NCBI GenBank assembly: GCA_036253495.1
Contig: GCA_036253495.1_4125.1
Reading direction: 5' to 3' (one strand)
DNA from: a phage
Length of the DNA stretch: 64,000 bases
The notes beneath the pieces are model-generated. The model did not search any database and was not told where the DNA came from. It was given only the letters and a program-made list of their open reading frames with translations. This document shows positions 7,389 through 62,946 of this stretch, one piece after another. Numbering within the stretch: the stretch's first letter is position 1; every line of letters begins with the position of its first letter. The translations under genes and the position numbers were made by a program.

Positions 7389-7395
7389 AAAGTAC

Positions 7396-8339: not shown

Positions 8340-8369
8340 TTGACTTTTTATATGAATCGTGTATTATAT
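8340..8369 (+). promoter_or_regulatory. sigma70-like promoter of the GTNYQ-family array
   Basis: TTGACT 8340-8345, TATTAT 8362-8367. Confidence 0.5.
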
Positions 8370-8397
8370 GATTGATATTAATTTTAAGGGAGTCCCT

Positions 8398-13828: not shown

Positions 13829-13835
13829 TGCGATA

Positions 13836-14162: not shown

Positions 14163-14171
14163 GAGATTAAT

Positions 14172-14942: not shown

Positions 14943-15303
14943 ACCAGTAATAATGATGTTAAATGCAAGACGAGATTTATGGCACGAAATGCATAACAAG
15001 AAGGATTCATTTGCACAAATCAATTTAGTCTTTCAGGAGTTAATCCAGAGTGCATTGGATGTTATTGAACCAAAATACAAAGATGGTATATTCTGTGTAA
15101 AGAATGCAGTTCGTCCTCATGCAATTCCAAGGAAAATTAAGTTAGCTAGATTAACATTTGACGAGAGGGATTTCTTCAGTTATAATCCCAGTACAGCTTT
15201 ATATTTTATTCCTGATTCAGACAAATATCATCCTATCCATTACGGATGGATTATGTCTTATATAGTAAATGAAACGGAATACCCTATTAAATGGGAAAGA
15301 TGA
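14902..15303 (+). CDS. hypothetical protein
   Basis: track ORF 133 aa. Confidence 0.55.
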   Translation: MNTMQNLTIVQDLRPVIMMLNARRDLWHEMHNKKDSFAQINLVFQELIQSALDVIEPKYKDGIFCVKNAVRPHAIPRKIKLARLTFDERDFFSYNPSTALYFIPDSDKYHPIHYGWIMSYIVNETEYPIKWER

Positions 15304-15479
15304 TGATAGATGTTAAGACATTAAATGCATTACAGGATTCATTATTAGATAGTATTAAGCTGTATTACAATATGCATTTGAGGGGTGGTATCAATGATTA
15401 CAATTATTATTTGAGTGTAATTATATTTGAGCATCTTTCAGTACAGGATAGAATTTTACACAAGTACAAACATTATTGA
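15291..15479 (+). CDS. hypothetical small protein
   Basis: track ORF 62 aa. Confidence 0.45.
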   Translation: MGKMMIDVKTLNALQDSLLDSIKLYYNMHLRGGINDYNYYLSVIIFEHLSVQDRILHKYKHY

Positions 15480-15490
15480 GGAAACAAAAT

Positions 15491-15850
15491 ATGTTCAATA
15501 AAATCATGTTCATTTTAACATTTGTGTTTTTATCATTCACAAACACCGCTCATGCAGTACATGCAGAACAGGCATCATCGGATGTACCGTTATATGAAAC
15601 ATACAAATTTGATTGCAGATTGCAGAATAATGAAATAATCAATATCTTTTTACACAATACAGAAGTACCTTATTTGCAGATTGAAGCAACGAAGTACATG
15701 TATTATGGTACGAATTCGGTACAGGAATTTTTATTCAAACACACCAATCAGGATGTAATTATATCATTGCAGTACGTTGATAGTTCATTGTCTTTAATGC
15801 ATTTCAAGAATGCAGAGGGATTAGTTACAGTGCTCAAATGCTATAGGTAA
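15491..15850 (+). CDS. hypothetical secreted protein
   Basis: SD GAGGAAA + ATG 15491; signal-peptide-like MFNKIMFILTFVFLSFTNTAHA. Confidence 0.6.
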   Translation: MFNKIMFILTFVFLSFTNTAHAVHAEQASSDVPLYETYKFDCRLQNNEIINIFLHNTEVPYLQIEATKYMYYGTNSVQEFLFKHTNQDVIISLQYVDSSLSLMHFKNAEGLVTVLKCYR

Positions 15851-15856
15851 TAATAT

Positions 15857-16372
15857 ATGAATGAAATTGAATTATTAACGCACAAGATTAGTACAATAAT
15901 GCTTATGCTCAAAAATAATCATCCTATACATAAGTACATTGATATAGATGAATTACGCATAGAAGATAGGCATGGTAAATTATCGTTTATGTTTCACAAT
16001 GCAAATAATGCAGGGAATGTTAACGTTTGTATTGCAGCATTTACCCAAGCCAATCCAGTACAAACATCTCCTGTTGTATACGAAAATAAAGAAGGGTATT
16101 TGTGGGTAAACACAAACGATTATTTCTTTTATGATTTGAAACAAGATGATGAAGTAGAAGAACGAATTGATTTAATTGATATTAGTACAGATTGTAGTGC
16201 TGAATTATTTCAGAAATCGTTATTATATAGTCCTCGTCAAATGCATTATCTAAAGTTATTCAGTTCATTGTACGCGAATCCTTTAATTAAGGGTTTTAAA
16301 TTTTATATAAAAGTTCCTGACATTCAAGCAGTTTATGATATTTTGATGCAAGGATATAGTTATGAAGTATAG
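15857..16372 (+). CDS. FQxS-family protein
   Basis: track ORF; motif SAELFQKSLLYS. Confidence 0.7.
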   Translation: MNEIELLTHKISTIMLMLKNNHPIHKYIDIDELRIEDRHGKLSFMFHNANNAGNVNVCIAAFTQANPVQTSPVVYENKEGYLWVNTNDYFFYDLKQDDEVEERIDLIDISTDCSAELFQKSLLYSPRQMHYLKLFSSLYANPLIKGFKFYIKVPDIQAVYDILMQGYSYEV

Positions 16373-16670
16373 AATGCTCTATACAAAAGATATGATTTAT
16401 GTTGAATTAGAAGGCGATGAAGACGGTTGGAATTTGATTTATTCATGTAGTTCAGGTTGGTACATGGCACATTTAAATGATAACGAAGTCACAGATTATT
16501 TTGTAGATTTCAATACATTATCCGACGAAGAATTGTTTCAACAGCAATTAGTGATTGACACAGGTGGATATGATGTGTTATTATTAAAAAAGATACAGAA
16601 AGCTGTTATGAATTTTAATGCCCAGGTATCCGAATGGGAAAGGAAATATTATGACCTCGAAGTACAATAA
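16362..16670 (+). CDS. FQxS-family protein
   Basis: track ORF; motif SDEELFQQQLVID. Confidence 0.7.
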   Translation: MKYRMLYTKDMIYVELEGDEDGWNLIYSCSSGWYMAHLNDNEVTDYFVDFNTLSDEELFQQQLVIDTGGYDVLLLKKIQKAVMNFNAQVSEWERKYYDLEVQ

Positions 16671-17019
16671 TACATTTGATATCAATAAGTTAACAGAATG
16701 GTTTTATAATATTGAAATTGAAGCTATTCCGTATCATAAGTACGAACAAAGTGATTTGCGTAGTATAGATATTCGTGAGTTGTATGCATATTATCAGAGT
16801 GCATTAGAGATGCATAAGATATTTTTGAGTACAGAATACATGACACGTTGTAAGGATGCGTTTGATGAATTCAAGAAGAATGATAATTTAGTACAGAAAT
16901 ATGTAATAGCAAAGTACATGTACCTTCAGGGAATTACAAGTACAGTGGAATTCAATACAGTTCTTGCTTTAGTTGAGATTATTTTATTATGCAAAAATGT
17001 AAAGTGGAATTTAGTTTAG
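16651..17019 (+). CDS. hypothetical protein
   Basis: SD GGAAAGGAAA + ATG 16651 (track 16618). Confidence 0.55.
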   Translation: MTSKYNNTFDINKLTEWFYNIEIEAIPYHKYEQSDLRSIDIRELYAYYQSALEMHKIFLSTEYMTRCKDAFDEFKKNDNLVQKYVIAKYMYLQGITSTVEFNTVLALVEIILLCKNVKWNLV

Positions 17020-17486
17020 AGAGTGCTGTACAGTACGTTAAGTACATTGAAGGTGTATACAATATAATGAAAGCATATGAAGGAAAAGGATATGCTTCAA
17101 TAAATCACAAATATGATTATATTAACAATCAGTTAGAAGAATCAAATTCAGGTAAAGTGCTTTTTAGTTTTTTATATTTTGCTCCTGACAATGTATATCC
17201 TGATGAAAATGATCTTCGTCTGGAAAGAGATGACCTTTGGTATATGTATCCAGGACGTGATAAGCCAATGGATGATGCTTTGTTGGAAATCAAATACAGT
17301 ACAGAACCTTTGACACCGGAGTTGTGGTTCCAGTACAGTACAATACATGAAGAAATTGATATCTTTTTCTACGCAATATATAAGATGCTTTATGAGAATG
17401 GTGTGCTTAAGAATCATGTATATTTTTATTTCCAGCAAATGAAAAATGTATATGAGTCCTTTTACCCAACCGAGCCTGTATCGTAA
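16989..17486 (+). CDS. FQxS-family protein
   Basis: track ORF; motif PELWFQYSTIHE. Confidence 0.7.
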   Translation: MQKCKVEFSLESAVQYVKYIEGVYNIMKAYEGKGYASINHKYDYINNQLEESNSGKVLFSFLYFAPDNVYPDENDLRLERDDLWYMYPGRDKPMDDALLEIKYSTEPLTPELWFQYSTIHEEIDIFFYAIYKMLYENGVLKNHVYFYFQQMKNVYESFYPTEPVS

Positions 17487-17512
17487 GATATGGGCTTTTT
17501 TACGTTTTGGTA

Positions 17513-17541
17513 TTGACACAGTACAGAATCGGTGCTAACAT
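17513..17541 (+). promoter_or_regulatory. sigma70-like promoter
   Basis: TTGACA 17513-17518, 17-nt spacer, TAACAT 17536-17541. Confidence 0.45.
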
Positions 17542-17568
17542 ACCTGAACCATTTTTAAGGAGAACCCA

Positions 17569-18111
17569 ATGCAAACATCGCAAAAATCGCAAAAATCGCA
17601 AGTACAGAAAGCAATGACATTCAATGAAATTGGTGCATTTAAAGATAAGATTATTGATTGTATTGAATACGCGATTTGTAGTAATATCAAAAGTATAGAG
17701 GTATTTAACAAGTCAAATCGCTCTTACCATATGATGTACATTGCAAACAATAATGGTATCATTCCATTTGTTTCGGATAGTACAATATGGTTCGCTTGCG
17801 ATGTGAAAAAATACACAATAGGTTCATATGTCTTCGGTAAACATGGTGATCTAATTATTCCTGAGCATTGTATGCAAGAAGAAGAATATTTTCAAAAGCA
17901 ATGTGTACATGAACCATTAGAGATGGTTGCTTTATATATGATACCTTATATCTCTAAATGTGTTCATGAGAATAAAGCTCCGTGGAATCATGAATTTGTA
18001 TCGTTGAAGTTATTGTATAATGTTTTAGTACAATATTATGATTACAGACACGAGGGTACAATCAGCGATGTATGGGATTTCGAAAATTTAAGGGTAAAAA
18101 CATATGAATAA
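17569..18111 (+). CDS. FQxS-family protein
   Basis: track ORF; SD AAGGAGAA; motif EEEYFQKQCVHE. Confidence 0.7.
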   Translation: MQTSQKSQKSQVQKAMTFNEIGAFKDKIIDCIEYAICSNIKSIEVFNKSNRSYHMMYIANNNGIIPFVSDSTIWFACDVKKYTIGSYVFGKHGDLIIPEHCMQEEEYFQKQCVHEPLEMVALYMIPYISKCVHENKAPWNHEFVSLKLLYNVLVQYYDYRHEGTISDVWDFENLRVKTYE

Positions 18112-18742
18112 TTTTCCAAGAAATGCTTCACCGTATGAGGTGATGAAGTTCATGGAGCCTCATGTTCCTTATATGTTTGAAATGCTAAAGAAGTTCAATG
18201 CTATTTTCCCTGAGAATTCAAAATTGGAGATTCCATTTGATTCCGCATCCAGATACAGTGCATCCTGTGGTAAATTAGTTTTAGTTATCGGTAGTGACAG
18301 AATTGGTTTCAGGGAAGTATTTGACACGTCATTAGCATTTGGTATATTCGATAACAACAATAACATCACATACATTGACAAGTACATTTGCGACATAGCA
18401 GGTTCATCTAAGCCGGATTCCTTTGTGGATTCAGTTGCAGATTATGGTGTTTCAAAAGATGGTAATGTAATAAGTACAAAGACGTTCATATCATTATCGT
18501 TAGACGATGACATATGTTACATTGCAGGTCAAGAGTACGAGGGTGTAGAGGAAGTGCTTTTTCAAATGTCCTTAGTACAGAAGGATATGGTGGACCCTAC
18601 CGAAATCCTGAAGTTGTGCAAATATGCAAATGAGTACAAGAAATTGATTGAACCTGGGTTTAGTTTCAGTGCACAGAGTCCGCATTTTCAGATAAAAGTA
18701 TATGAAGATTTCATTTTGAAGTTAAAAGAGATTGTGTTATAA
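18104..18742 (+). CDS. FQxS-family protein
   Basis: track ORF; motif EEVLFQMSLVQK. Confidence 0.7.
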   Translation: MNNFPRNASPYEVMKFMEPHVPYMFEMLKKFNAIFPENSKLEIPFDSASRYSASCGKLVLVIGSDRIGFREVFDTSLAFGIFDNNNNITYIDKYICDIAGSSKPDSFVDSVADYGVSKDGNVISTKTFISLSLDDDICYIAGQEYEGVEEVLFQMSLVQKDMVDPTEILKLCKYANEYKKLIEPGFSFSAQSPHFQIKVYEDFILKLKEIVL

Positions 18743-18794
18743 TACGCAATAACATGCAATAACACACAATACAACAAAGACGGGAGTGATTTAG

Positions 18795-19331
18795 ATGATC
18801 CAGCACAAACATTTTGAGTACGAGTTCGCTGACAATTTAGTAAAAATCGTACAGGCGTTTGAGGCTGGGGATTTTGACCACATCTATCCTAAGCACAAGG
18901 AAGGATGGCTTGAGCCTAAGAGCGATATTGAAAAGTATCCATCTATTGTGTATTACAGGAGAGATACGGTAATGCACGCTGTAGGTGAGAAGATGCAGTT
19001 AGAGTATTGTCTTTTGTTCAATGCTATTACATCGGCTACATCAGCATCTGAAGAGTTCGCTCCAGTGAATTGGATTCGTTATTTGGATATGAGCAAGAGA
19101 GAGGAAGAAACCTTTTTTGCTTTAACAAAGCACGTTGATATTGCAACCTTGAATCCTAACATCCTGAGTCCTGAAGAATATTTTCAGGAGTCCTTAGTAC
19201 AAGATCCTTATGTTTTACAGGTGCAGCAAGTATATAATGTATTACGTGCTAATGTGAAAACGAATTTCTTTTTAGCTTTAACGTGGTACGATAGGTTAGT
19301 AAAAGATCTCAAAGAGATTAAGGGGGAGTAA
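18795..19331 (+). CDS. FQxS-family protein
   Basis: track ORF; SD GGGAGTGA; motif PEEYFQESLVQD. Confidence 0.7.
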   Translation: MIQHKHFEYEFADNLVKIVQAFEAGDFDHIYPKHKEGWLEPKSDIEKYPSIVYYRRDTVMHAVGEKMQLEYCLLFNAITSATSASEEFAPVNWIRYLDMSKREEETFFALTKHVDIATLNPNILSPEEYFQESLVQDPYVLQVQQVYNVLRANVKTNFFLALTWYDRLVKDLKEIKGE

Positions 19332-19897
19332 TGCTGGACCTTCAGGACATAGAAAGTACATGCAAAGCGATAGAAGATGATTTAGAATACATCAAGGGGT
19401 TGTATTTAATTGTAGATAGGATTTACAAAAATCCGAATGCGTTTCAGGAAACGTACCAGCATGATAAATTTCGTCACGAACCAATCATTACGCTTATGTC
19501 GGATTTATCGATTTACGAAAGAAAATCCAACAAATCACATAGTGTATTATTTGTGAGTACAGATAGATTTTACAGTACAACATCAATTTGTTCAGATGTA
19601 TCATGTGCATGGTTCAGTTCAAATGAATATATAACAGTTAAAAATAATGGCGAAAATGAGAAATTAAAAGTAAGTGAGCTTATTGATTTGATGCCATATA
19701 GTCCTGATGTTGTGTTTCAGTACAGTACATTGCACGATTATAATTCAATACGATATCGTTATTTTGTTAAGCATTATTATGATACCTTCGGGGAGTTGAC
19801 GGAGAAGTTAACGTTGAGATTTGACCGTGATATCGATCTCGTTGCAATGCTTCAGTACATACAGTACGTGTTTGATAAGGACGCGGAAAAGGGGTAA
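19331..19897 (+). CDS. FQxS-family protein
   Basis: track ORF; motif PDVVFQYSTLHD. Confidence 0.7.
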   Translation: MLDLQDIESTCKAIEDDLEYIKGLYLIVDRIYKNPNAFQETYQHDKFRHEPIITLMSDLSIYERKSNKSHSVLFVSTDRFYSTTSICSDVSCAWFSSNEYITVKNNGENEKLKVSELIDLMPYSPDVVFQYSTLHDYNSIRYRYFVKHYYDTFGELTEKLTLRFDRDIDLVAMLQYIQYVFDKDAEKG

Positions 19898-20097
19898 TTT
19901 TAAAATGATAAATATAGGCTTGTTTTTGGGGGTCAAAAAAATTTTCGCTGAAAAACATGTTAAGGTATATGTTTAATATAAAATTTTATATTGTGTTTTT
20001 CAGAGTACAGTTCATGTTTCCTTAAACAAAAAATACCCCGCCGCCGAACGTGCTCCTTATATTGTAGTTTACCTTATTAATTATAGTAGAGGTTATT

Positions 20098-20454
20098 ATG
20101 AGCAATGATTTTGCTATTCACAGTTTTTTCTACAAAAAGGTTGAGTTCTATTGTAATCTCGTTAAGGGTGATACCAATCATTCGTTGGACCAATATATTA
20201 AGTACACCTCAAATGGATTTTCTTTTATTGATTACGGTCGAGTGGGTGGTGGTGTTAATGAACCTCTACTGGACTATACAGAAATGGATGAGGCTACACT
20301 ATTTCAGGAATCATTAGTGTTCGATAAGAAATATATTTGTACACTAGATGAAGTTATTGGTATTCAGAATATCATGAAAGAACACTCTGCGAAGTGCATG
20401 ATAGAATTAACTCAAGATAAGCACAAGACTGTTCAGTACCATTTCAATCTTTAG
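20098..20454 (+). CDS. FQxS-family protein
   Basis: track ORF; SD AGAGGT; motif EATLFQESLVFD. Confidence 0.7.
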   Translation: MSNDFAIHSFFYKKVEFYCNLVKGDTNHSLDQYIKYTSNGFSFIDYGRVGGGVNEPLLDYTEMDEATLFQESLVFDKKYICTLDEVIGIQNIMKEHSAKCMIELTQDKHKTVQYHFNL

Positions 20455-20465
20455 GGGTCTTAACT

Positions 20466-20810
20466 ATGACATACAATGAATACCGTGAAATAGATCTTCT
20501 CCAGAATACATTATATGAAATTGAAGATTTAATGCACGGATGGACAAGTCTTTCTTTCTTTAATGAAATGTTCGAAGAAATAAAAGTAGTACTACAGAAA
20601 AAACATAATGGTACTAAAATTAAAATAAAGACTTTCACTGGAGAAGTCTGGTGCGGAGAAATTGTGAAATACATTATAACTCGCAATAACGCATCATTCT
20701 GTTTGAATACTGGTCATTACAGAAATCATTTCAACAATAGCAGTACTCAAATTATTTCCGAGGAAGAATACAATGAGCACTGTAATAAACTTCTTAAGAG
20801 TAGATTCTAA
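20466..20810 (+). CDS. hypothetical protein
   Basis: track ORF 114 aa; no family motif. Confidence 0.55.
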   Translation: MTYNEYREIDLLQNTLYEIEDLMHGWTSLSFFNEMFEEIKVVLQKKHNGTKIKIKTFTGEVWCGEIVKYIITRNNASFCLNTGHYRNHFNNSSTQIISEEEYNEHCNKLLKSRF

Positions 20811-31841: not shown

Positions 31842-32390
31842 ATGGATAGCATTGTAAATATTATTGAATGCATGATTTATATTTTTAAAAACAGTCCTGA
31901 TAATAAGACTGTTAATTTTGAGTTAGGTGAATTAAATATCAACCCAAAAGAATCTCCATCAGTATATTCTAATATTACATTGTTCATTAGTGGTTTAGGT
32001 TATGTCGTAAAGATCATTAATGCGACACAACGTAGACAAGAATACAAGATGGAAATTCTACGCGGAGATAGTGAAATTCGTCTATATAATGTATCACGCT
32101 ACACTAAGATACTGGTAAAACATTCTTATGAAGATGACGAGAAGTTAGCTGTAGCTAAAATTGATTCAAACACTTTCAAAGAACAAATGTTCATGGCTGC
32201 TATGTCATATGATCAATTAACTTATAATAAGCTAGAAATGGGTTATAAATTACTTAGGTTATTAGAAGATCATTATGAAATTACAATTATGGACAAATTG
32301 CTTACCAAAAGCCAAGAGGAACTAGAGAAAATGCATTTGTTATTAAAAAAATATATTGATGATAATTTAAATTATGGAGAAGTACGTTGA
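31842..32390 (+). CDS. hypothetical protein, degenerate FQxS-family member
   Basis: track ORF; SD AAAAGAGAG; degenerate motif [13 protein letters not shown]; first gene of operon. Confidence 0.65.
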
Positions 32391-33799
32391 AAAGTAATTT
32401 AGAAAATATACGCAAAAAAGCCGATAATTTAGTACTATGTTGTATAGGGGCTTTATTCGCTGTTACTTTAGTTTCCGGTGTTGTTCATGGTAGTTTTATT
32501 ATTGCACTAATCGGTGCAGTTTTATTATTAGTAATGCTAACTCCTTTACTATTTGTTGAAAGTAATGCGTTCACTCGAACGTTGTTAAGTATAAATGTGA
32601 TGTGCTGGAGTGCGTTACTAATACATCTTGGCTTAGGGATGGTGGAATGGCACTTTACAGTTTTTGTCTTTTTAAGTTTATTGATTGTATGGCGTGACTG
32701 GCGTTGTGTATTAGCAGGTTCAGTACTGATTGCTATACATCATTTATTATTTGGATTGTTACAGGGTGCTGGAATTCCAATATTATTCGTGTTTTCTTTT
32801 CACCATATTTCGTTATGGCACATTATAGAGCACGCAATATATGTAGTAGTACAGGCAATAGTTCTGATGTACGTAGCGTACATTATGGAGAAAGATGCAA
32901 ATGAAGCAGATGAAATTCAACGAATTGCAAGATCAGTGAATTCTGAAGACGGCAATATTACTTTAGAAATACAAAATAATCATTTCAACTCCGAATTTGC
33001 ACAGACTTTTAGTAAAACAATATCAGCTATGCGTGAGGCAATTGAACAAGTACAAATTACAGTTCAGTCAATGAAAAGCAACTCCTATCATCTCGAAAGT
33101 AAAAGTAATGATTTAGCTTTCAGAACTGAAACACAAGGACAGGCACTTACTCAAATCGCTGCTGCTATGGAAGAATTAAGTGCTACATCTGCAAATACAT
33201 CTGATAACTCCAATACTGCAAAAAGTATGGTTAAAACTACAAAAGAATCCAGTACTAATGCAATTGAAAGTATCAATAATTGCAAAGAGCAGATGGATAG
33301 AATTAAAGAAGATTCTAATGCTATAGTTGCTATACTCAAAAATATAGAAACTATTGCTTTCCAGACTAATATTCTTTCTTTAAATGCCAGTATTGAAGCT
33401 GCTAAAGCTGGTGAACATGGACGTGGATTCTCTGTTGTTGCACAGGAAGTTCGTAACTTAGCAATGAAATGTGATGCATGTAGTAAAGAAATTAAAGAAA
33501 TCGTTGATAACTCCGTAAAAAACAACAACCAAGGAATAGAACAAATCAACGAAACTGCAAGTGATATTGATTCTATTGTAAAAAATGTTGATTCACTCTT
33601 GCAGTTCATTGATGATTTAGCTATAATGGCTGAACAACAAAGCATTGCAATCCTTCAGGTTACTGAGAGTGTTAATATGATGGACCGTTCAGTACAGCAA
33701 AATGCGGAGCATGTAAAGGACACAATGATGATGGTAGACAATCAACAGTCTGAAGTACATGCTTTACAAAAAGCCACTTCGATTTTTAACGTGAAATAA
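32387..33799 (+). CDS. methyl-accepting chemotaxis protein-like transducer (multi-TM N-terminus + MCP signalling domain)
   Basis: SD GGAGA + TTG 32387 (alt ATG 32534); 5-6 hydrophobic helices; canonical MCP core [32 protein letters not shown]. Confidence 0.85.
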
Positions 33800-44859: not shown

Positions 44860-45699
44860 ATGAAATTAAATTTTATTATCAACTTTAATGTTAAAGAAAC
44901 CGATCATTACGCATCAGAAGATGACCGTGTTGCACCAGCTTCGTCTGAATACATCAGAAATGAAAATGTCCATATGCATGAAAATTATTTCGACTTTGGT
45001 AATTTTATTATCTACCGTGGATTTAAGGATGTTGTATTCCGTTCCAGATATGAAGACTTTGAACATGCACTCATTGATGTACCAGATGAATTAGTATTCC
45101 AGTTCATGTTACTTGGTATTAAAGATTATGACTTTATAGTTTATAACCATTATACTAAGCGTATTATGATTGGTAATGATTCATATGATCTTACTTATTA
45201 TTCCAGTACTGATGAAGATTTAGAAAATATTAAACGCCGTTCTGGTGGTATACGTAATTGTTCATCTTCAAACTCCAGTAGAATGAGTGAAAGGTTTTTT
45301 GATTTCAAAAATAGCAATAATAACGACTGTGAAGACGCGGACAATACTGAACATGTAATGTTTGAAATTGACCACAATAATGGATATAATGACTTCCTTA
45401 ATGTTCTGAAGCCTTATATCAATCATAAATTCATCAAAGATGTAAATCTGGTAGCTCGTGACTTACAGTACAGTGATCGTACTGGTGGTATGCCTGTACC
45501 AATGGATCGTGTATGTACGAACAATACAGTGTTTAATGTACCACGAGAAGATGTTGCATTTGTATTTCTGGCATTTTTGAATTCAGATGCACTATGGGAC
45601 GATAATGAAAGACAATTTAGTTCAAGACATATTGAAATAATTCGTCAAAATACATTACTACTGTGGAAGAAATTTACTGAAAATACCCAGGACAAATAA
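44860..45699 (+). CDS. hypothetical protein (279 aa), FQxS-like motif
   Basis: track ORF; motif DELVFQFMLLGI. Confidence 0.65.
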   Translation: MKLNFIINFNVKETDHYASEDDRVAPASSEYIRNENVHMHENYFDFGNFIIYRGFKDVVFRSRYEDFEHALIDVPDELVFQFMLLGIKDYDFIVYNHYTKRIMIGNDSYDLTYYSSTDEDLENIKRRSGGIRNCSSSNSSRMSERFFDFKNSNNNDCEDADNTEHVMFEIDHNNGYNDFLNVLKPYINHKFIKDVNLVARDLQYSDRTGGMPVPMDRVCTNNTVFNVPREDVAFVFLAFLNSDALWDDNERQFSSRHIEIIRQNTLLLWKKFTENTQDK

Positions 45700-45719
45700 A
45701 TTCTTGGTGATATAATGAT

Positions 45720-45752
45720 GAGTGGCAATATATCTTTGTCACTCTTTTTTTT
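45720..45752 (+). terminator. rho-independent terminator
   Basis: GAGTGGCAA..TTGTCACTC hairpin (one G-U) then TTTTTTTT. Confidence 0.7.
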
Positions 45753-46391
45753 AATCCTGAAAGGTTCCATATGGAAATGATTAAGAGCCTAATCCACTCG
45801 AAAATGTAGAGGGTAGATGAGTAGTCCTTTCAGTACGAACAGCAGATGAAACCCGTCAGATGTGGGCATATTATGAACCCCTCACGGCAATGCGGCTGTA
45901 TAAAGAACTCCGATAAGCACACAGAGAGTTCCTAGATAGACATATAAGGATCGCACCTTACCAGATTTGCTAAGGGAGATTTCATTAGAAATTGCGGTCA
46001 ACTATTTGTACAAGATAGTTGCGTCCAAAATTTGGTGAAATCAAATACCAGTACTGTTCATATGGTACTCGTATTATGTGTCGGGATGTTTAAGACCGAC
46101 GACCGTTGCTACAAGAACCGCGATAGAGAGAAACAGAGCAACCCGCTTTCGCCTCGTTAAGAGAATTCGTGATATGAAATATGTGAAGACCACCAGCGTC
46201 AAATTTTAATTCTTTCCCCCAGTGGGGGGATGAAATATGCTCTTCCAAACCTCGTCAATATTAATTAAAACCATTTAGTACTATTAGAATTATTCAGAGC
46301 GTAGCGATGAATTAATTCTACTGATGTTGATTGAGTGCTAACGAAATCAATATCGAGTACATTATTTGATGTTTCCTAAAAAGGAATAATA
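45753..46391. other. ORF-free, GC-enriched intergenic island; candidate structured RNA or degraded insert
   Basis: no ORF >=60 aa in any frame over ~640 bp in an otherwise gene-dense window; visibly more G+C; hairpin CCCCCAGTGGGGGG at ~46216-46229. Confidence 0.3.
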
Positions 46392-46934
46392 ATGCCTGTA
46401 TTTTCAAAGAACAAAACAACAGAGATCATTTATAAATCAAAAGAATTTGAAGTACTAGAAGAATTTGATAGAGATTCATTTGATGGATATAAAATAGTAA
46501 AAGAAAAAGGAACTATCAATCATATTGTTGAGTACATGGGAGGTGTAGAACTAGCAAAAATCACTTGTAGACCTACAAAAAACCCAGTAATTTTTTCTGT
46601 TCGCTATGGACATTACGGAGAAGAGCGATATAATTCTAATACAGTATCAAGGAAATTCCATGTTGTAGATGGGAAATTAGAAGGGGAATCCAGACAATAT
46701 AGTGTTCTTGGACTTCCTTTGTCAGTGAAGTACTTCCATCAAGGACATGATGTTACTATTGAAATTATGGATTTTATTGGGTTCAATGGTACAGTAGATG
46801 ACTTCAACTTCTATGTATTAGCAGAAGATGAAGCATTCAATATAATGATGAAGTACGGTTCTAGATTTAAATTTTTATATGAGTACAACCTGGACAGTAA
46901 ACTGTTCGATAATATCTTACAGAACTGTCTATAA
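46392..46934 (+). CDS. hypothetical protein
   Basis: track ORF 180 aa; SD AAAAGGAA. Confidence 0.65.
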   Translation: MPVFSKNKTTEIIYKSKEFEVLEEFDRDSFDGYKIVKEKGTINHIVEYMGGVELAKITCRPTKNPVIFSVRYGHYGEERYNSNTVSRKFHVVDGKLEGESRQYSVLGLPLSVKYFHQGHDVTIEIMDFIGFNGTVDDFNFYVLAEDEAFNIMMKYGSRFKFLYEYNLDSKLFDNILQNCL

Positions 46935-46951
46935 TTAAAGGACTTAATGAT

Positions 46952-47479
46952 ATGGGGAAAAAGGATAATCCCACAAAAAACAAACATTCGGTACACTTCA
47001 GTACTGGAAAAGATAACTGGACTACTCCAAAGGAATTCTTTGAAGATTTGGATGAAGTCTGGGGATTTACACTTGATGCAGCATGTGTTAAAGAAACTGC
47101 ATTATGTGACAAGTTTTTTACACCGGAAGATGATAGTCTTTCACAGGATTGGGGAAACAATATCGTCTTTCTTAACCCACCATACAGCGACCTGAAACCT
47201 TGGCTATCTAAGGCAGTTGATGCTTATAATAATGGTGCAACAGTACTGATACTTGTTCCATCACGTACTGATACAATTGCATTTCAGGAATATGCATCTA
47301 AGCTTTGTGACTGTATTTGTTTTATTAAAGGACGTTTAAAATTTGGCATCCCTGAAGAACCAGATAAAAAGACTGATAGTGCTCCATTCCCTAGCTGTTT
47401 AATAGTACTGGATAAGTACTTAACACCAGCTAAAATCAACCATCTTAAATCTATCGGTCAGGTGATGAAGAATATATGA
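46952..47479 (+). CDS. phage Dam-family DNA N6-adenine methyltransferase
   Basis: track ORF; NPPYS catalytic motif, FTLDAA, WTTPKEFFEDL N-terminal block. Confidence 0.8.
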   Translation: MGKKDNPTKNKHSVHFSTGKDNWTTPKEFFEDLDEVWGFTLDAACVKETALCDKFFTPEDDSLSQDWGNNIVFLNPPYSDLKPWLSKAVDAYNNGATVLILVPSRTDTIAFQEYASKLCDCICFIKGRLKFGIPEEPDKKTDSAPFPSCLIVLDKYLTPAKINHLKSIGQVMKNI

Positions 47480-48015
47480 AAGACACTTGTATAGTAACGT
47501 ATGGACGTATAAATCCAGTGCATTTGGGACATGGGTTAATTTTTGATAAAGCCGTATCGATGAAAGAACAATACAATGCTGATTTAAAAATATACCTTAG
47601 TACTACACAAGATTGTATTAAGAATCCATTACCACCTGAATTGAAAATGTATTACACTGAGGGTTTCTATCCAAGAATTCAACACAACATCAGTACTGAA
47701 GATAATCTTTTTGATATTATGCAGGAATTGAATGGTAAGTACAGTGATGTTCTTTTCATATGTGGTTCAGACAGGATAGAAAACTTTCAAAATGTACTTG
47801 ACAGATACAATGGAAACTTGTATAATTTTCGTAATATAAAAGCAATCCAAGCTGGTATAGACCGAACCGTTAGCAAGTACAGTTCAACTGAAATGCGTTC
47901 TTTTGCTAAGCGTGATGATTTTGAAAGCTTCAGTTCTTATCTACCAGGTGATGATAATGACTTGAAAATAAAACTTTTTAAAGATGTAATAAAATACATG
48001 AGGAAAGAACCATGA
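47476..48015 (+). CDS. HxGH-motif nucleotidyltransferase (NMN/NaMN adenylyltransferase-like)
   Basis: YGRINPVHLGHG (GxFxPxHxGH-type) near N-terminus and SSTEMR (ISSTxIR-like) near C-terminus; ATGA coupling to methyltransferase. Confidence 0.6.
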   Translation: MKDTCIVTYGRINPVHLGHGLIFDKAVSMKEQYNADLKIYLSTTQDCIKNPLPPELKMYYTEGFYPRIQHNISTEDNLFDIMQELNGKYSDVLFICGSDRIENFQNVLDRYNGNLYNFRNIKAIQAGIDRTVSKYSSTEMRSFAKRDDFESFSSYLPGDDNDLKIKLFKDVIKYMRKEP

Positions 48016-48305
48016 CAGTACTCTTCAAAACTAACCCAGTACTATGGGAACAAAATGAAAGTTCAGGATATCGTAATATCCAAGTAGAATACAAAGGTAA
48101 CACTATTGTATCGGTTGTTGCGAACAAAACCCTAGGTGAATGGACATGTCAAGTGGTTCCAATGGGTTATTCATATCGTCTGGATGAAGTTGAATTTCTC
48201 GCTAATCTTTATTCACAAATGCAGTTCATTATGAACTTCCTTTGTACTGATACTGAACTTACACACGATGATGTAATCAACTTACTGGACAATTTACATG
48301 TCTGA
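48012..48305 (+). CDS. hypothetical protein
   Basis: track ORF 97 aa; ATGA coupling. Confidence 0.6.
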   Translation: MTVLFKTNPVLWEQNESSGYRNIQVEYKGNTIVSVVANKTLGEWTCQVVPMGYSYRLDEVEFLANLYSQMQFIMNFLCTDTELTHDDVINLLDNLHV

Positions 48306-48588
48306 AATAAATGATATCACTTCTATCATATTGGATGAGTGTATTTTAGGATCATACGAAACATTTTCAGTACTAGACGGTATAGAACTATGGCACATTA
48401 AATGCCGTGGTATCAATGGCTTCAGTACTGAATGCAAAAAACTCTTGACTTCGTGCAGTACTGAAGGTAAACTGTGTACAGTGAGGTCATCACCGAGTCT
48501 TTCATATACTGGATATATAATTTATCTTGGAAGTGATCATTTATTCTATCTCACCAAGGAGAACTATTTTGACAAATACAAACAGTAA
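48298..48588 (+). CDS. hypothetical Cys-rich protein
   Basis: track ORF 96 aa. Confidence 0.6.
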   Translation: MSEINDITSIILDECILGSYETFSVLDGIELWHIKCRGINGFSTECKKLLTSCSTEGKLCTVRSSPSLSYTGYIIYLGSDHLFYLTKENYFDKYKQ

Positions 48589-49186
48589 TACATATTTTCG
48601 TTACCTACGCCTTGGGCTATCACTTCGTCCAATTCGAGGTAAATGTGATTCTCTTGCTGATTTAGATTATGCATATTCCATTTATGATGATGGTGTACAG
48701 TATGTTCTGGGTGACTTCGGTGAGTTTGAAGAAACCAATGACAGTACTGGTATTATGGACGGCATTGAGAATCTAGATTGCATCGTAAACAGTTCAAGAC
48801 ATGATGTAATCAAAGAAATTCATAAATTTATTGAAACTAACACAGCAAAAACTACATGGTGTTTAGTAGGTACAGATCCACAAATGGCAATTGCTTTTGG
48901 TAATGAAGATGGATATGTAGCACAACTTATCATGGATTTTGCATCTAAAGAGAAATTTGAAGAATTCAAAGCAAAGATGGTTCAATCACTTCTTCAGATG
49001 GGTATCCCTGAAGATAAGATGCCAGAGATTCAAGATATTGAAGAATTTGTCTTAATTCCTTCAGATGAAAAATATGACGTATTATTCAGTACTCTGAACA
49101 TTCCAGGTGTTATCGTTGAAAGCTTTGATGACGATGATGGTGAAATCTACATCGAACTGGATGATGATGACGACGACGATGAATAA
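48569..49186 (+). CDS. hypothetical protein with poly-Asp C-terminal tail
   Basis: SD AAGGAGA + TTG 48569 (track ATG 48527); tail DDDDGEIYIELDDDDDDDE. Confidence 0.6.
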   Translation: MTNTNSNTYFRYLRLGLSLRPIRGKCDSLADLDYAYSIYDDGVQYVLGDFGEFEETNDSTGIMDGIENLDCIVNSSRHDVIKEIHKFIETNTAKTTWCLVGTDPQMAIAFGNEDGYVAQLIMDFASKEKFEEFKAKMVQSLLQMGIPEDKMPEIQDIEEFVLIPSDEKYDVLFSTLNIPGVIVESFDDDDGEIYIELDDDDDDDE

Positions 49187-49191: not shown

Positions 49192-49220
49192 ATGCCCGAC
49201 TTTGTTCGGGCATCTTTTTA
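49192..49220 (+). terminator. rho-independent terminator
   Basis: ATGCCCGACTTTGTTCGGGCAT hairpin then CTTTTT. Confidence 0.75.
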
Positions 49221-49231: not shown

Positions 49232-49504
49232 ATGGACTATCGAGTACTGAATAGAACATATAAAGCTTTATACAAAACATATATTGAAAGTAAAGTACAT
49301 AATCCTATCATTTATAAAAATCCAGTTTATATTATATGGAATGAATATTTTACAATGATTCAAAATTACTTTTACTCTAACGAAATCTTTATAGATGGTG
49401 AAATGCGTAAGCTAACACGCGTTGATAGTATAGGTGGTGAAATTGTGTTATTCTATACTGATTCTATTATTGGACAACAATCTATAAATTTAGAGATATT
49501 ATAA
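49232..49504 (+). CDS. KYIGK-family small protein
   Basis: track ORF; MDYRVLNRTYK N-terminus; VDSIGGEI block. Confidence 0.65.
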   Translation: MDYRVLNRTYKALYKTYIESKVHNPIIYKNPVYIIWNEYFTMIQNYFYSNEIFIDGEMRKLTRVDSIGGEIVLFYTDSIIGQQSINLEIL

Positions 49505-49770
49505 TGAATTATAAGGATTTACATTTCACCTATAAACTAACATTTTATATGTATCGTTATGCTGATAACAACTTCATGGATAATGCATTTTATCATCGTT
49601 TGTGGAGTGATTATATAAATTCTTTACGTGAACATTTTATAGGTACTATAATTCAATACGAAGGTAAAACAGTAAAAATATTTCAAGTTGATAGTTACAA
49701 CGGGGATCTATGCTTCAAGGGTAGAGATTCTAGTGATGGATTACATGAGATTTATATCTATGAATTATAA
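49504..49770 (+). CDS. KYIGK-family small protein
   Basis: track ORF; MNYKDLHFTYK; HFIGT..VDSYNGDL. Confidence 0.7.
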   Translation: MNYKDLHFTYKLTFYMYRYADNNFMDNAFYHRLWSDYINSLREHFIGTIIQYEGKTVKIFQVDSYNGDLCFKGRDSSDGLHEIYIYEL

Positions 49771-50035
49771 GGATTTACAATTCACGTACAAAATTCTTCA
49801 TGAACAATATGAACGTGGTGAAGGAATATTAACTTACGATGAACGAGATTTTTTTCTTACATTGTGGTGTGAATATTTGGCAATGATTAACGAGATTTTT
49901 GTTGATAAAGAATATATGATTGACGACATGACTGTACGTATTATCAGAATTAAAAGTTATAATGGAAGTCTTGTTGGAATTTACTATAACAATGAAAAGG
50001 CGAAAAGCGGATTTGTTGATTTGGAGTATCTATGA
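49760..50035 (+). CDS. KYIGK-family small protein
   Basis: ATG 49760 (MNYKDLQFTYK; track 49688). Confidence 0.65.
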   Translation: MNYKDLQFTYKILHEQYERGEGILTYDERDFFLTLWCEYLAMINEIFVDKEYMIDDMTVRIIRIKSYNGSLVGIYYNNEKAKSGFVDLEYL

Positions 50036-50295
50036 ACTATAATGATTTACAATTCACGTATCAACTTTTATATGATGATATGAATAACGAATTAGGTTTC
50101 TACTATGAAGTACGTAATAAAATATGGTCAAATTATCTATCTGAGATACAACATCATTTTATAGGACTTCCAATACGTAGAAATAATAAAAACTATCGTT
50201 GTACTGATGTAGTAAGTCATAGAGGTAGGTTGCGTTTAGAATTCTACCGCAGAGACGGGGACTTCATTGGTATAAATTTACTGGATTTTAAATGA
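50032..50295 (+). CDS. KYIGK-family small protein
   Basis: track ORF; MNYNDLQFTYQ; HFIGL..CTDVVSHRG. Confidence 0.7.
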   Translation: MNYNDLQFTYQLLYDDMNNELGFYYEVRNKIWSNYLSEIQHHFIGLPIRRNNKNYRCTDVVSHRGRLRLEFYRRDGDFIGINLLDFK

Positions 50296-50580
50296 TGAAA
50301 AACAACTTAAAGGAAATACAAGTATTTTATAGATTCTTATACTTGTCATATGTAACAGATGAGTACTATGAAAGTGTGTATTATTTTTTTATGGCAACAT
50401 TACCGTACTATAGTAAGAGATTTATATATAGGAAAATCTATCATATCCAATGGTGAAAAATGTACCTGTACAGATGTTGTTAGTTTTAATGGTTCTTTAA
50501 CACTGTGTTTCAGATGCGATAATAATAGTGGGTCATTTTCATTAAACGTATATCAGTTAGAAGGAATAAATTTTGAATAA
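50295..50580 (+). pseudogene. KYIGK-family paralog split by a +1 frameshift
   Basis: N-terminal half (ATG 50295, 56 aa, family-like) in one frame; C-terminal half (YIGKS..CTDVVSFNG) in the +1 frame as track ORF 50359-50580. Confidence 0.45.
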
Positions 50581-54439: not shown

Positions 54440-54703
54440 ATGAATATCCAAGATAGATTGCAATTGTTGCACACACTTGAAGAAGCTGCTTTTGAACTTG
54501 TTAATAAAATTGCACAAGAACTCCCAAAAGGAACCAACATTCGTGTTCGTGAAATGGATTATTTAACGGGAGAAATTGAAGAAAAAGTTCTAACAGTGAT
54601 CAAAGTAACATACTATGAATCAGAGTTATCAATTCAATGTAAGTCAGATAATGGTTACGTTTCCTACTATGGCACAGATGTAGATATAGAGGTAATTAGA
54701 TGA
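54440..54703 (+). CDS. hypothetical small protein
   Basis: ATG 54440 (track 54395). Confidence 0.55.
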   Translation: MNIQDRLQLLHTLEEAAFELVNKIAQELPKGTNIRVREMDYLTGEIEEKVLTVIKVTYYESELSIQCKSDNGYVSYYGTDVDIEVIR

Positions 54704-55845
54704 GTAATTTACGAGAAATATACAATGATTTAATGGAACTATGTGAATCTAATGATGCATTTTTCTATATAGATCACACAAGCCCTGGTGGTGGTTTATA
54801 CCGTGTATTCACCTATCGTCTGGCATCTTATACCGATTTCACAAATAAAAATGCACTAGAAACTCGTGGTTCTATGTGGGAAATTGATTCCAACGGAATT
54901 ATGATTCGTTGTGCAGCACGTACAATGAAAAAGTTCTTCAATGCATATGAAAACCCGTACACAATGTTCAGTACTGATACTACCTGTGATGATATTGCGG
55001 TTGTAATGCCTAAGCTAGATGGATCTATCATCAGCACATTCCGTGATAATGATGGTGAAATCCGTTGCAAATCACACACTTCGTTATCTTCTGACCATGC
55101 TATTAACAGTACTCGACTTTTGAACGAGAACCAAAATCTCTATCAATACATTGATGAAGCAGACCGTTTGGGCTATACTGTGAATCTGGAATACACAAGC
55201 CCAGAGTATCGAATTGTGTTACCATATCAGGTGGAACAGTTATTTGTTCTTAACGTTCGTCATCGTATTAGTGGTGAGTTGTTATGCGGTAAAGCACTAC
55301 GTGATAAGTTTCCATGCCTTTCACAGTACAGTACTAATATGACAGGTAATGACATTCATCATACATTCCCGATTATGCCTACATTTAAAGAGTCAATCGA
55401 TAAAGTACGTTCTATGATTGACATTGAAGGTTTTGTGTGTATAATGAAAGATGGTACAATGTGCAAAATCAAAACTGACTGGTATTGCTCTTTGCATTTA
55501 ACAAAAGATTCCATTCTTATTGATTCCCATTTATATGAAGCTGTACTGACTGGTGCAAGTGATGACTTAAAACAATTGTTCAGTACTGATACATATGCTA
55601 TGGATAAGATATTAAGAATGGAACAATTGGTATTTTCGTGCTATAATGCTTTACAAGATGAGGTAGAAAGCTTCGTCCATGCATACAAGCACTTAGAGCG
55701 AAAGGAATTCGCACAAAAGGTTCAGCAAGATTTACCGAATGTATTGAACCGACAAGGCTTGGCCTTTGCGTTGTACAATGGCAAAAGTGTCGATTATAAA
55801 GAGACTTTACTAAAGTACTACAAAGATGTACTAAAGGATTTTTAG
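54700..55845 (+). CDS. rnlA: RNA ligase 1 (T4 RnlA-like)
   Basis: 381 aa; collinear with T4 RnlA as I recall it: YNDLMELC N-terminus, ligase lysine motif PKLDGS, MKDG..KIK..DWY, GASDDLK. Confidence 0.85.
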   Translation: MSNLREIYNDLMELCESNDAFFYIDHTSPGGGLYRVFTYRLASYTDFTNKNALETRGSMWEIDSNGIMIRCAARTMKKFFNAYENPYTMFSTDTTCDDIAVVMPKLDGSIISTFRDNDGEIRCKSHTSLSSDHAINSTRLLNENQNLYQYIDEADRLGYTVNLEYTSPEYRIVLPYQVEQLFVLNVRHRISGELLCGKALRDKFPCLSQYSTNMTGNDIHHTFPIMPTFKESIDKVRSMIDIEGFVCIMKDGTMCKIKTDWYCSLHLTKDSILIDSHLYEAVLTGASDDLKQLFSTDTYAMDKILRMEQLVFSCYNALQDEVESFVHAYKHLERKEFAQKVQQDLPNVLNRQGLAFALYNGKSVDYKETLLKYYKDVLKDF

Positions 55846-56918: not shown

Positions 56919-57851
56919 ATGCCAACTATTACACTAACAGTTGGATTGCCAGGATGTGGTAAAACCACGTGGGCAGTGCAAGAAATTAAAAAAGCAAAGT
57001 CCAAGACTATCAACATCAACCGTGATGATATTCGAGAGTCTATGGCTGGGTCACATGATGCTTATAAATTCACTGATGCGAACGAGAAGTACGTAACTAA
57101 TCAACAGTTCAGTGCAGCAAACGCCGCAGCAGCGAATGGATGGAACATTATTGTGTCCGATACGAACCTGAAACAAGGTTTTCGTGATGAATGGAAACGT
57201 TGGGCTAAAGATAATGGCTACGACTACAAAGAAAAGAACTTCTACGAAGATTTTGTACCGAATGAAGACCGTGGTGCAGATGTTCATGAATTCTTTAAGA
57301 TTAAGGAATTCGTGAAGCTCTGTAAGAAACGCAACCTTCTTCGTGAGCGTTCAGTACAAGATGAAATCATTGACACTATGGCAGATACGTACTATTATAG
57401 TAAGGCGATGCACATTGGTTACTATGGTAATGCACGTGAAGCTGCTATCATTGTTGATATCGACGGTACTCTTGCTCATAAGTGGGGACGTAACCCGTTT
57501 GATGAAAGTACTGTCCTTCAGGATACACCAGATGAAGAAGTAATTCTGTCTGTCATTGCTGAGGCTGTTTTCCATAAGCGTAAGGTAATCGTCATGAGTG
57601 GGCGTACTGAAGGGTGTCGTGCTGATACTGAACAGTGGCTTAAGAATTGGGGCATTCCCTACGATGTATTGTTAATGCGAGCTATCGATGATAAACGTCC
57701 TGATGATGTTGTCAAATTCGAGTTGTATATGAATAACGTTGTTAATCATTACGATGTTAAGAAAGTATTTGATGACAGGGCCGCCGTTGTATTCATGTGG
57801 CGTAAGCTACTAGGCTTGAAAGTATTTCAGGTGGAACCTGGACTATTTTGA
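56919..57851 (+). CDS. pnk: polynucleotide 5'-kinase / 3'-phosphatase (T4 Pnk/PseT-like)
   Basis: 310 aa; kinase P-loop GLPGCGKTT, phosphatase DIDGTL, C-terminal RKDDV..K-like block; collinear with T4 Pnk as I recall it. Confidence 0.85.
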   Translation: MPTITLTVGLPGCGKTTWAVQEIKKAKSKTININRDDIRESMAGSHDAYKFTDANEKYVTNQQFSAANAAAANGWNIIVSDTNLKQGFRDEWKRWAKDNGYDYKEKNFYEDFVPNEDRGADVHEFFKIKEFVKLCKKRNLLRERSVQDEIIDTMADTYYYSKAMHIGYYGNAREAAIIVDIDGTLAHKWGRNPFDESTVLQDTPDEEVILSVIAEAVFHKRKVIVMSGRTEGCRADTEQWLKNWGIPYDVLLMRAIDDKRPDDVVKFELYMNNVVNHYDVKKVFDDRAAVVFMWRKLLGLKVFQVEPGLF

Positions 57852-61971: not shown

Positions 61972-62206
61972 ACAGTTAAAGATGTTACAATCGTTATCTG
62001 ATGATTTTGTCCAACGTGCTAAGCACAAATATATTGGTCAAGAAATTCTTCTTAAACACTCCAGAGGTTGGCAAAAAATATGCATAAGAGATATGGGAAC
62101 ATATTATGGTGATGTGCGATATTACGTAGATTGCTATGTTAATGACCAAATTGCCAATACTCAAGTTGTCACCTATGATAAAATTATATGGATTAAAGAA
62201 CAATGA
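61952..62206 (+). CDS. KYIGK-family small protein
   Basis: track ORF; HKYIGQEI. Confidence 0.65.
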   Translation: MTKTEIEQLKMLQSLSDDFVQRAKHKYIGQEILLKHSRGWQKICIRDMGTYYGDVRYYVDCYVNDQIANTQVVTYDKIIWIKEQ

Positions 62207-62946
62207 AACATTTCTTAGAAGTAACAGTTCCTGATGAAAAAGATTTGTATATAGTAGGAGACATTCACGGTAATGCAAAACTATGGGAACATACCAAGAA
62301 AGAATTTGGTATTACTCCTGAAGATTATGTATTCAGTTTAGGCGATTTAATTGACAGAGGTGAGCAAAGTGCTCACCTTTTGTTTGAGTTTTTATTCGCT
62401 GAGAATCGATATATGATCATGGGCAATCATGAATCGATGTGTATTGATTCTGCAACTCATCGTGACTGGTATCATTGCTGGACACAGAATGGGGGCGATA
62501 AGTTCCTGGAAGAAGTTGGTGTATCAGGAGTGGAATTCTTCCGTCAGTACTTGAACCAGCTACCTATGATTATCCAAATCAATCACAGAGGACTCAAGAT
62601 TGGCCTCGTACATGCAAGTGTAGACCTTAAGCACACTGACTGGAATAAGTTCATTACTGGGACAAAATCAATGTCCAGTGATACAATTGAGTCATGCCTA
62701 TGGGACAGAAAGACATTTGATTTCTGTAAAGCTAACAACGTCTTTAATGCACCACGTATTGCTAACGTCGATTACGTTCTTAGTGGTCATACCGCTGTGT
62801 TTGATCCCCTAATTTATGGAAACCGTATCTGGATTGACAGTCAGTTCCTTACTGGTGATTTGACTATTGCTACCCCACAAGGTGGTAAGATGCGTTATTT
62901 GCGTAAAGAAAAAGACGAATATTCATTCAGTCGATTCAAAAGGTAA
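62203..62946 (+). CDS. PPP-family Ser/Thr protein phosphatase (lambda-phosphatase-like metallophosphoesterase)
   Basis: GDIHGN, GDLIDRG, GNHE motifs in canonical order; ATGA coupling. Confidence 0.85.
   Translation: MKHFLEVTVPDEKDLYIVGDIHGNAKLWEHTKKEFGITPEDYVFSLGDLIDRGEQSAHLLFEFLFAENRYMIMGNHESMCIDSATHRDWYHCWTQNGGDKFLEEVGVSGVEFFRQYLNQLPMIIQINHRGLKIGLVHASVDLKHTDWNKFITGTKSMSSDTIESCLWDRKTFDFCKANNVFNAPRIANVDYVLSGHTAVFDPLIYGNRIWIDSQFLTGDLTIATPQGGKMRYLRKEKDEYSFSRFKR

Follow-up and report, generated by a model that had tools for sequence, protein, structure and literature searches.

Predicted Dam-family methylase and HIGH-superfamily nucleotidyltransferase genes in a collinear gene cluster of an Escherichia coli jumbo phage related to A4

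Three pathways have been described by which phages reconstitute nicotinamide adenine dinucleotide (NAD+), and each of them needs a partner: Nampt in one, Adps together with Namat in another, and PnuC with a kinase domain in the third. Orphan adenine methylases of the Dam family (Pfam PF05869) are carried by Shiga toxin (Stx)-converting, T1-like and lactococcal 936-type phages. Here we describe two overlapping genes at positions 46,952 to 48,015 of a 64,000-nucleotide stretch of phage DNA, hereafter the window (contig GCA_036253495.1_4125.1 of GenBank assembly GCA_036253495.1). A sequence-only reading of the window had taken the first open reading frame (ORF1) for a Dam-family N6-adenine methyltransferase and the second (ORF2) for an enzyme like the adenylyltransferases (NMNATs) of nicotinamide mononucleotide (NMN) and nicotinic acid mononucleotide (NaMN). 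It proposed that the two form a translationally coupled anti-defence unit, in which the methylase protects against restriction and the NMNAT rebuilds NAD+ after its depletion by host NADases. Our analysis favours, with moderate confidence, a plainer explanation, namely that these are two ordinary, already annotated genes in a terminator-bounded cluster of six that is collinear across RaK2-like jumbo phages, and not a demonstrated unit.

The window comes from an E. coli jumbo phage nearly identical to Escherichia phage A4 (ON286972.1, Asteriusvirus, 355,528 bp), with which the region 46392-48588 shares 99.6% identity. The counterparts in A4 are already annotated as 'DNA N-6-adenine-methyltransferase' (A4_406) and 'putative cytitidyltransferase' (A4_407). 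Both ORFs were found on the + strand where they had been placed (Table 1), together with the motifs reported for them, FLNPPYS in the first and both GRINPVHLGHG and YSSTEMR in the second. Their profile matches, given below, are far beyond chance and neither ORF is a chance feature.

The ATGA in which the stop codon of ORF1 overlaps the start codon of ORF2 is likewise present, but such overlaps are generic in this DNA. They occur at 29 of the window's 153 junctions between neighbouring + strand ORFs, with an overlap of any kind at 82 of the 153, and ORF2 also overlaps the gene that follows it by ATGA (48012-48015). The start of ORF2 is preceded, at a distance of 10 nt, by a Shine-Dalgarno-like AGGTGA. 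The order of a hypothetical gene (~175-180 aa), the Dam gene, the nucleotidyltransferase gene and a second hypothetical gene (~94 aa) is kept in phages WPEC5, fENko-Kae01, Serratia phage BF and CBB, and this synteny persists down to 36% identity of the nucleotidyltransferase. The overlap itself is replaced by a gap of 39 nt in BF and of 21 nt in CBB, and neither in MIJ3, a PA5oct-like phage, nor in cyanophages does a methylase gene adjoin the ORF2 homologue. With the pair in a collinear block, its overlap lost in BF and CBB, and the nucleotidyltransferase family present without Dam in PA5oct-like phages and cyanophages, the proposal of an anti-defence unit is not supported. The simplest reading of the adjacency would be conserved collinearity within one phage lineage, the RaK2-like jumbo phages. 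Against mere synteny, the adjacency survives to 36% protein identity, so that a functional link may exist.

ORF1 matched the Pfam Dam profile PF05869 with 111.6 bits (cut-off 28.1, E=4e-32, profile positions 7-153 of 169) and PHROG 111 with E=7e-57. It was aligned with its orthologues from A4, WPEC5, fENko-Kae01 and Serratia phage BF, with the Stx-phage Dam of phage PA30, and with a lactococcal 936-type methylase. In this alignment NPPY is invariant, TLD(A/S)A and GR(L/I)xF are conserved as well, and the methylase motifs are kept down to 31% identity, the Stx-phage Dam included. The assignment of ORF1 to the Dam-family N6-adenine methyltransferases is thus borne out, with the catalytic motif intact. 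Homologues were found in 2138 phage records, Stx-converting and T1-like phages among them. The PF05869 orphan Dams of the Stx-converting, T1-like and lactococcal 936-type phages are of the same family and size as ORF1, carry the same NPPY and are 31-46% identical to it; the difference is that ORF1 scores slightly below the NCBIfam equivalog cut-off (TIGR01712, 90.9 bits against 97.05). Judged by these matches, ORF1 appears to be an ordinary phage orphan adenine methylase, and we predict that it is likely to be active in forming N6-methyladenine in DNA. It would transfer a methyl group from S-adenosylmethionine to the N6 of adenine in the phage DNA, and this methylation would blunt restriction. 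In characterised members of its Dam family the target is GATC, a sequence that occurs in the window at 0.66 times its expectation.

It has also to be considered that ORF1 and ORF2 might act jointly on DNA, the one targeting adenine N6 and the other supplying an adenylyl-activated group, which would give a modification beyond methylation. Such an arrangement would agree with the adjacency kept across RaK2-like phages, and with PHROG 33262, in which a Dam domain is fused to an ATP-using Rossmann-like enzyme resembling 3'-phosphoadenosine-5'-phosphosulfate reductase and which ORF1 matches with E=2.6e-10. The odd statistics of the genome, where AGTACT is about 10-fold over expectation and GCGC is absent, would fit as well. 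However, ten restriction enzymes cut the DNA of phage fEgEco12 in the way expected (PMC13070987), and the ORF2 family occurs mostly without Dam, so that we regard joint action on DNA as very improbable.

ORF2 matched PHROG 3041, named 'cytidyltransferase', with E=5.5e-54 and PHROG 395 with E=9.9e-26. A word-index search with ORF2 recovered close relatives only, and an exhaustive profile search returned 3365 representative homologues (50%-identity clusters, E<=1e-3). By tblastn of the phage collection homologues were found in 562 records, including 375 of Synechococcus phages, 61 named 'Cyanophage', 24 of Prochlorococcus and 33 of Escherichia phages, with others in Klebsiella, Salmonella, Erwinia, Yersinia and Pseudomonas jumbo phages. 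ORF2 is thus a member of the large, phage-specific 'cytitidyltransferase' family, long known from T4-like cyanophages and core in cyanomyoviruses. The cyanomyovirus proteins named 'cytitidyltransferase' or 'NMNAT-like' (P-SSM2 PSSM2_194, MED4-213 CPMG_00179, S-SCSM1 ORF91) are 30-39% identical to ORF2 over its full length and share its (T/H)xGH, KNPL, GSDR, YNG and SxTxxR motifs. The cyanophage genes adjoin DUF6267 and other core genes, whereas ORF2 adjoins a methylase, and the cyanophage versions are sometimes extended or fused. An alignment of 40 sequences of the family has the motifs (T/H)xGH, KNPL, GSDR, YNG..Y.F and SxTxxR, with H19, N50, R100, N112, S136 and R141 invariant. Proteins of the ORF2 type recur in cyanophage virion proteomes (PMC9602691); in Klebsiella phage fENko-Kae01, notes from liquid chromatography-tandem mass spectrometry are attached to two neighbouring genes and not to the ORF2 counterpart.

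The AlphaFold model of ORF2 is a confident one (pLDDT 84.9, pTM 0.80); it shows the Rossmann-like fold shared by nucleotidyltransferases of the HIGH superfamily and carries HxGH and ISxTxxR on it. The earlier identification of ORF2 as an (H/T)xGH nucleotidyltransferase is therefore upheld, and NMN/NaMN adenylyltransferases are indeed among its nearest solved relatives. ORF2 itself scores 14.6 bits against Pfam CTP_transf_like (PF01467), where the gathering threshold is 21; relatives pass this threshold, the P-SSM2 protein for example with 44.7 bits. From the chemistry common to the superfamily we infer that ORF2 holds a nucleoside triphosphate, probably ATP, by means of HxGH and ISxTxxR, and that it would join the nucleoside monophosphate to the phosphate group of some small acceptor molecule, with release of pyrophosphate.

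As to the acceptor, the lines of evidence disagree, and the NMNAT label is not secure. NMN or NaMN is our best single guess, a reasonable but unproven one that we put forward tentatively; in that case ORF2 would use host-derived mononucleotides to replenish NAD+. 4'-Phosphopantetheine or some other acceptor, taken together, is the more probable outcome. The comparisons that weigh against the NMN guess concern both the protein itself and the genomes in which its family is found. When the ORF2 model was searched with Foldseek, structures of phosphopantetheine adenylyltransferase (PPAT) took places 1-23, at a TM of ~0.6. Neither ORF2 nor the profile of its close homologues matched any of the solved-structure sequences. 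The 40-sequence profile gave weak matches, with PPAT first (E ~1e-4, full-length alignment) and NMNATs at E ~1e-3 over the N-terminal third only. The best score of ORF2 against any NMNAT or NadD model was 20.2 bits, for TIGR00482, where the cut-off is 112.45.

In a scan of the 40 family members against NCBIfam none came near any curated cut-off, and the weak matches were to NadD (TIGR00482) in 30 members, NMNAT (PRK01153) in 20, FAD synthetase in 14 and CoaD (TIGR01510, E<=1) in 10. By hhalign the family gave E=1e-3 with NadD and E=4e-5 with NadR, only the HxGH region being aligned, and E=2e-3 over 142 columns with E. coli CoaD at a probability of 13%. The NMNATs of the NadM, archaeal and NadR types (PDB 2qjt, 1f9a, 8x7f) are 13-16% identical to ORF2, their sequence profiles align with its N-terminal third only, and ORF2 is without the Nudix or kinase domain. 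The SSTEMR motif, which had been read as ISST-like and as a pointer to NMNATs, is common to the whole superfamily and aligns with PPAT and with the TmcAL-like protein 3gmi. Annotators of several cyanophages name the homologue NMNAT, and two GenBank records call the ORF2 orthologue PPAT.

If ORF2 were PPAT-like, it would make dephospho-coenzyme A or a related adenylylated pantetheine compound. The bacterial PPAT CoaD (PDB 4nah; E. coli CoaD) has the size and fold of ORF2 and is its top match in both the Foldseek and the full-length profile comparisons, the KNPL loop of ORF2 is like the KKPxF loop of PPAT, and relatives of ORF2 are fused to P-loop kinases, an arrangement comparable to that of eukaryotic coenzyme A synthase. 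Nevertheless, CoaD and ORF2 are only 15-18% identical and the RGLR of PPAT is replaced by GSDR. The CoaD model is touched by no more than 10 of the 40 members, far under its cut-off, and the hhalign probability is low. With no further gene of the coenzyme A pathway annotated in A4 and no known use of a PPAT to a phage, we consider a PPAT activity unlikely. On these comparisons ORF2 forms a branch of its own, about as far from NMNAT as from PPAT. The original NMNAT assignment was not sustained, since PPAT is as close or closer and the scores with curated NMNAT and NadD models all fall far short of threshold. It had been said that a grouping with unrelated adenylyltransferases would speak against that assignment, and such a grouping was found in part: PPAT is at least as near, and NMNATs stay among the nearest solved relatives.

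Partners in NAD+ salvage were sought by tblastn in the complete genome of A4 and in the window, with human NAMPT (an exact match to PDB 2gvg) and the NadR and PnuC proteins of E. coli as queries. Homologues of Nampt, NadR and PnuC better than E=0.4 were absent from A4 and the window, with the exception of the HxGH region of ORF2 itself against NadR, and the search for a partner enzyme in the near-identical A4 genome thus came back empty. Because the identical NAMPT query matches 2017 other phage records, down to ~25% identity, the negative NAMPT result in A4 is meaningful. Synechococcus phages are outside the top ten organism names of these NAMPT matches, that is, they make up at most 55 records. 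The ORF2 family is present in 375 Synechococcus phage records against these 55 or fewer with a Nampt homologue, and it is therefore not coupled to Nampt. In the RaK2-like phage CBB, gp072 and gp073 are a Dam and cytidyltransferase pair matching ORF1 and ORF2, and the authors of that genome (PMC5259590) name CBB_113 and CBB_361 as possible NMNATs and CBB_115 as a Nampt, and also annotate a transporter of the PnuC type. The occurrence of an ORF2 counterpart beside these annotated enzymes argues for a non-redundant role.

Of the described pathways, NARP2 (Nampt and Nmnat) and NARP3 (PnuC and a NadR-like protein) would have the final adenylylation step in common with the present phage if ORF2 were an NMNAT. 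However, their partner genes, Nampt in the one and PnuC with a riboside-kinase domain in the other, are not present in A4 or the window, and the Nmnat proteins of both belong to the canonical NadM or NadR families, unlike ORF2. Since the products of NADase defences are ADP-ribose and nicotinamide rather than NMN, a lone NMNAT could at most speed up host salvage. Some findings speak for a link to NAD. The A4 genome has genes for a Sir2-family protein (97099-97851), two Nudix proteins (137906-138301, 174631-175095) and a weak macro domain (139141-139617), and proteins of these three kinds use or process NAD+ or ADP-ribose. The name NMNAT given to the homologue in several cyanophages, and its recurrence in cyanophage virion proteomes, also count toward such a link. 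The phage of the window nonetheless appears to be without a complete NAD+ reconstitution pathway, and because of this it should not be counted as NAD+-reconstituting. That ORF2 is a true NMNAT which rebuilds NAD+ after NADase attack, in a translationally coupled anti-defence unit with the methylase, is in our view unlikely. The pathway partners, including Adps with Namat, are all missing from the genome, NADases do not yield the NMN that it would need, PPAT is equally close to ORF2, and the ATGA overlap is neither special to this pair nor kept in relatives.

A different substrate was proposed by Iyer et al. in 2021, who predicted that the HIGH nucleotidyltransferases of cyanophages and jumbo phages are sugar-phosphate nucleotidyltransferases (PMC7824862). 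ORF2 would then act on a sugar phosphate, or on glycerol phosphate, and make a nucleoside diphosphate sugar for glycosyltransferases. The historical 'cytidyltransferase' label and the weak CTP_transf_like matches point in this direction, as does a neighbouring gene in MIJ3 that is annotated as N-acetylneuraminate epimerase. The cyanophage gene neighbourhoods that were examined give no support, and we hold this activity to be distinctly unlikely.

Many relatives of ORF2, which is a stand-alone protein, are much longer. Among the 150 best ORF2 representatives 83 are longer than 500 aa, and in 101 of the 106 representatives above 300 aa the nucleotidyltransferase domain is N-terminal. Sampled long members, proteins of 500-1200 aa, carry DUF5824 and zeta-toxin/AAA_33 kinase domains, the latter resembling polynucleotide kinase. 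In MED4-213 the gene adjoining the nucleotidyltransferase homologue, CPMG_00180 (locus 3784-4989), was found to encode DUF6267 (E=1e-130). The invariant DUF6267 motifs KWDG, EGYV and K-L-V are reminiscent of covalent nucleotidyltransferases such as ligases and capping enzymes, and PHROG 455 is made up of a DUF6267 part and a nucleotidyltransferase part. DUF6267 is absent from A4. Five members of the ORF2 family with a C-terminal or central nucleotidyltransferase domain had no Pfam DUF6267 match, hhalign of one of these five (P0147) with the DUF6267 profile gave nothing, and a narrow hidden Markov model of DUF6267 matched 0 of the 150 listed ORF2 representatives. Nothing was found in the literature on DUF5824, on the cytitidyltransferase, or on AGTACT in jumbo phages.

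It is conceivable, though we think it rather unlikely, that the ORF2 family is a phage-only branch of the HIGH superfamily with an activity outside the described phage pathways. This might be a virion-delivered, Nampt-independent synthesis of NAD+ or of an adenylylated cofactor, or an adenylylation tied to nucleic-acid end processing or, in the RaK2-like phages, to the neighbouring Dam-like enzyme. Our preferred explanation remains that of two ordinary genes in a collinear cluster.

The six-gene cluster extends over 46392-49186 with terminator-like hairpins on both sides. For its last gene no Pfam match was found. Between the upstream hairpin and the first gene lie 692 bp (45700-46391) without a convincing ORF, a gap that is also seen in A4. 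No Rfam family reached its gathering score in the window that would have named a metabolite through a regulatory RNA or riboswitch, and the region 45600-47000 gave at most a chance-level match to a small RNA. A4 has an additional gene of 615 bp that the window lacks, A4_405 (A4 66334-66948), which encodes an HNH endonuclease (PHROG 953, E=1e-64) and whose position corresponds to that between 46934 and 46952 of the window. Residues 1-12 of the methylase differ between the window phage and A4, and together with A4_405 this differing N-terminus would be consistent with the insertion of a mobile homing endonuclease. Downstream of the cluster, five or more small paralogous genes follow one another in tandem (49232-50580); their products of ~73-99 aa begin alike (MNYKDLxFTYK...), and there are overlaps at several of the junctions.

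More striking than the gene pair are the excess of AGTACT and the absence of GCGC. The window has 213 copies of the palindrome AGTACT, where shuffling gives an expectation of 18.3 (sd 3.9); the palindrome is often extended to CAGTACTG (55 against 0.6 expected), and GTAC is present at 3 times its expectation. Copies of AGTACT fall in each of the three codon phases (85/66/26), and intergenic DNA is enriched in them as well. The A4 genome is enriched throughout, as are the loci from WPEC5, Serratia phage BF and Klebsiella phage fENko-Kae01, but the Pseudomonas phage MIJ3 and cyanophage loci are not. Intergenic copies at window positions 1000-7500 lie inside strong sigma-70-like promoter sequences, where they overlap the -35 element (TTGACAGTACT) or directly precede the -10 element (AGTACTgTATAAT). 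With an average of one site per 300 bp in the window, two stretches, 8178-11978 (3.8 kb) and 13799-20588 (6.8 kb), are free of AGTACT, and these may be of different origin or function. GCGC was not found in the window (52.6 expected), nor in A4 1-50,000 and 84,001-355,528 (~312 expected), which with the window spans the whole 355-kb genome. CTAG, CCGG and CGCG are depleted, at 0.31-0.40 times expectation.

Elsewhere in the window, an ORF of 470 aa with a TTG start (32387-33799) has a methyl-accepting chemotaxis signalling domain (Pfam MCPsignal, E=7e-37), which is unusual for a phage. An RNA ligase, a polynucleotide kinase-phosphatase and a metallophosphoesterase make up a tRNA/RNA repair set 7-15 kb downstream of the pair. 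A4 also encodes a CCA-adding enzyme and an RNA-repair nucleotidyltransferase of the RlaP/Pol-beta type, A4_502 ('putative nucleotidyltransferase'), a protein that had been considered as an NMNAT and was ruled out.

Table 1. Positions of the cluster genes and of other features of the window
Feature	Position	Strand	Remark
Terminator-like hairpin, 9-bp stem followed by TTTTTTTT (T-run)	45720..45744	+	Upstream cluster boundary, after the preceding gene
Hypothetical protein, 180 aa, PHROG 16210	46392..46934	+	First cluster gene; upstream of the methylase in A4, WPEC5, fENko-Kae01, BF and CBB
Dam-family (PF05869) methyltransferase, 175 aa, orphan (ORF1)	46952..47479	+	NPPY at residues 75-78
ATGA stop/start overlap of the methylase and nucleotidyltransferase genes	47476..47479	+	Sequence
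HIGH-superfamily (HxGH ... ISxTxxR) nucleotidyltransferase, stand-alone, 179 aa (ORF2)	47476..48015	+	PHROG 3041/395
Hypothetical protein, 97 aa, PHROG 14956	48012..48305	+	ATGA overlap with the nucleotidyltransferase gene; downstream position kept in relatives
Hypothetical protein, 96 aa, PHROG 38105	48298..48588	+	PHROG match
Acidic hypothetical protein, last cluster gene	48527..49186	+	Start TTG 48527 or ATG 48755
G+C-rich terminator-like hairpin	49192..49213	+	Downstream boundary of the six-gene cluster
AGTACT, example positions	47000, 47242, 47404, 47415, 47599, 47692, 48017, 48038		Window
Promoter-type AGTACT, examples	1049, 1317, 2519, 2795, 4199, 4693, 6193, 6532, 6989		20-90 nt upstream of small early-type genes
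T4 Rnl1-type RNA ligase	54700-55845		
T4-type polynucleotide kinase-phosphatase	56919-57851		
Metallophosphoesterase	62203-62946		

Both genes were already named in GenBank, and published work has described homologues of the second as NMNAT-like. What this analysis usefully adds is negative: the NMNAT label is insecure and the phage should not be counted as a case of NAD+ reconstitution. The ORF2 family is abundant and core in marine cyanomyoviruses; knowledge of its biochemistry would close a gap that annotation has had for a long time and could also uncover a new strategy by which phages supply cofactors.

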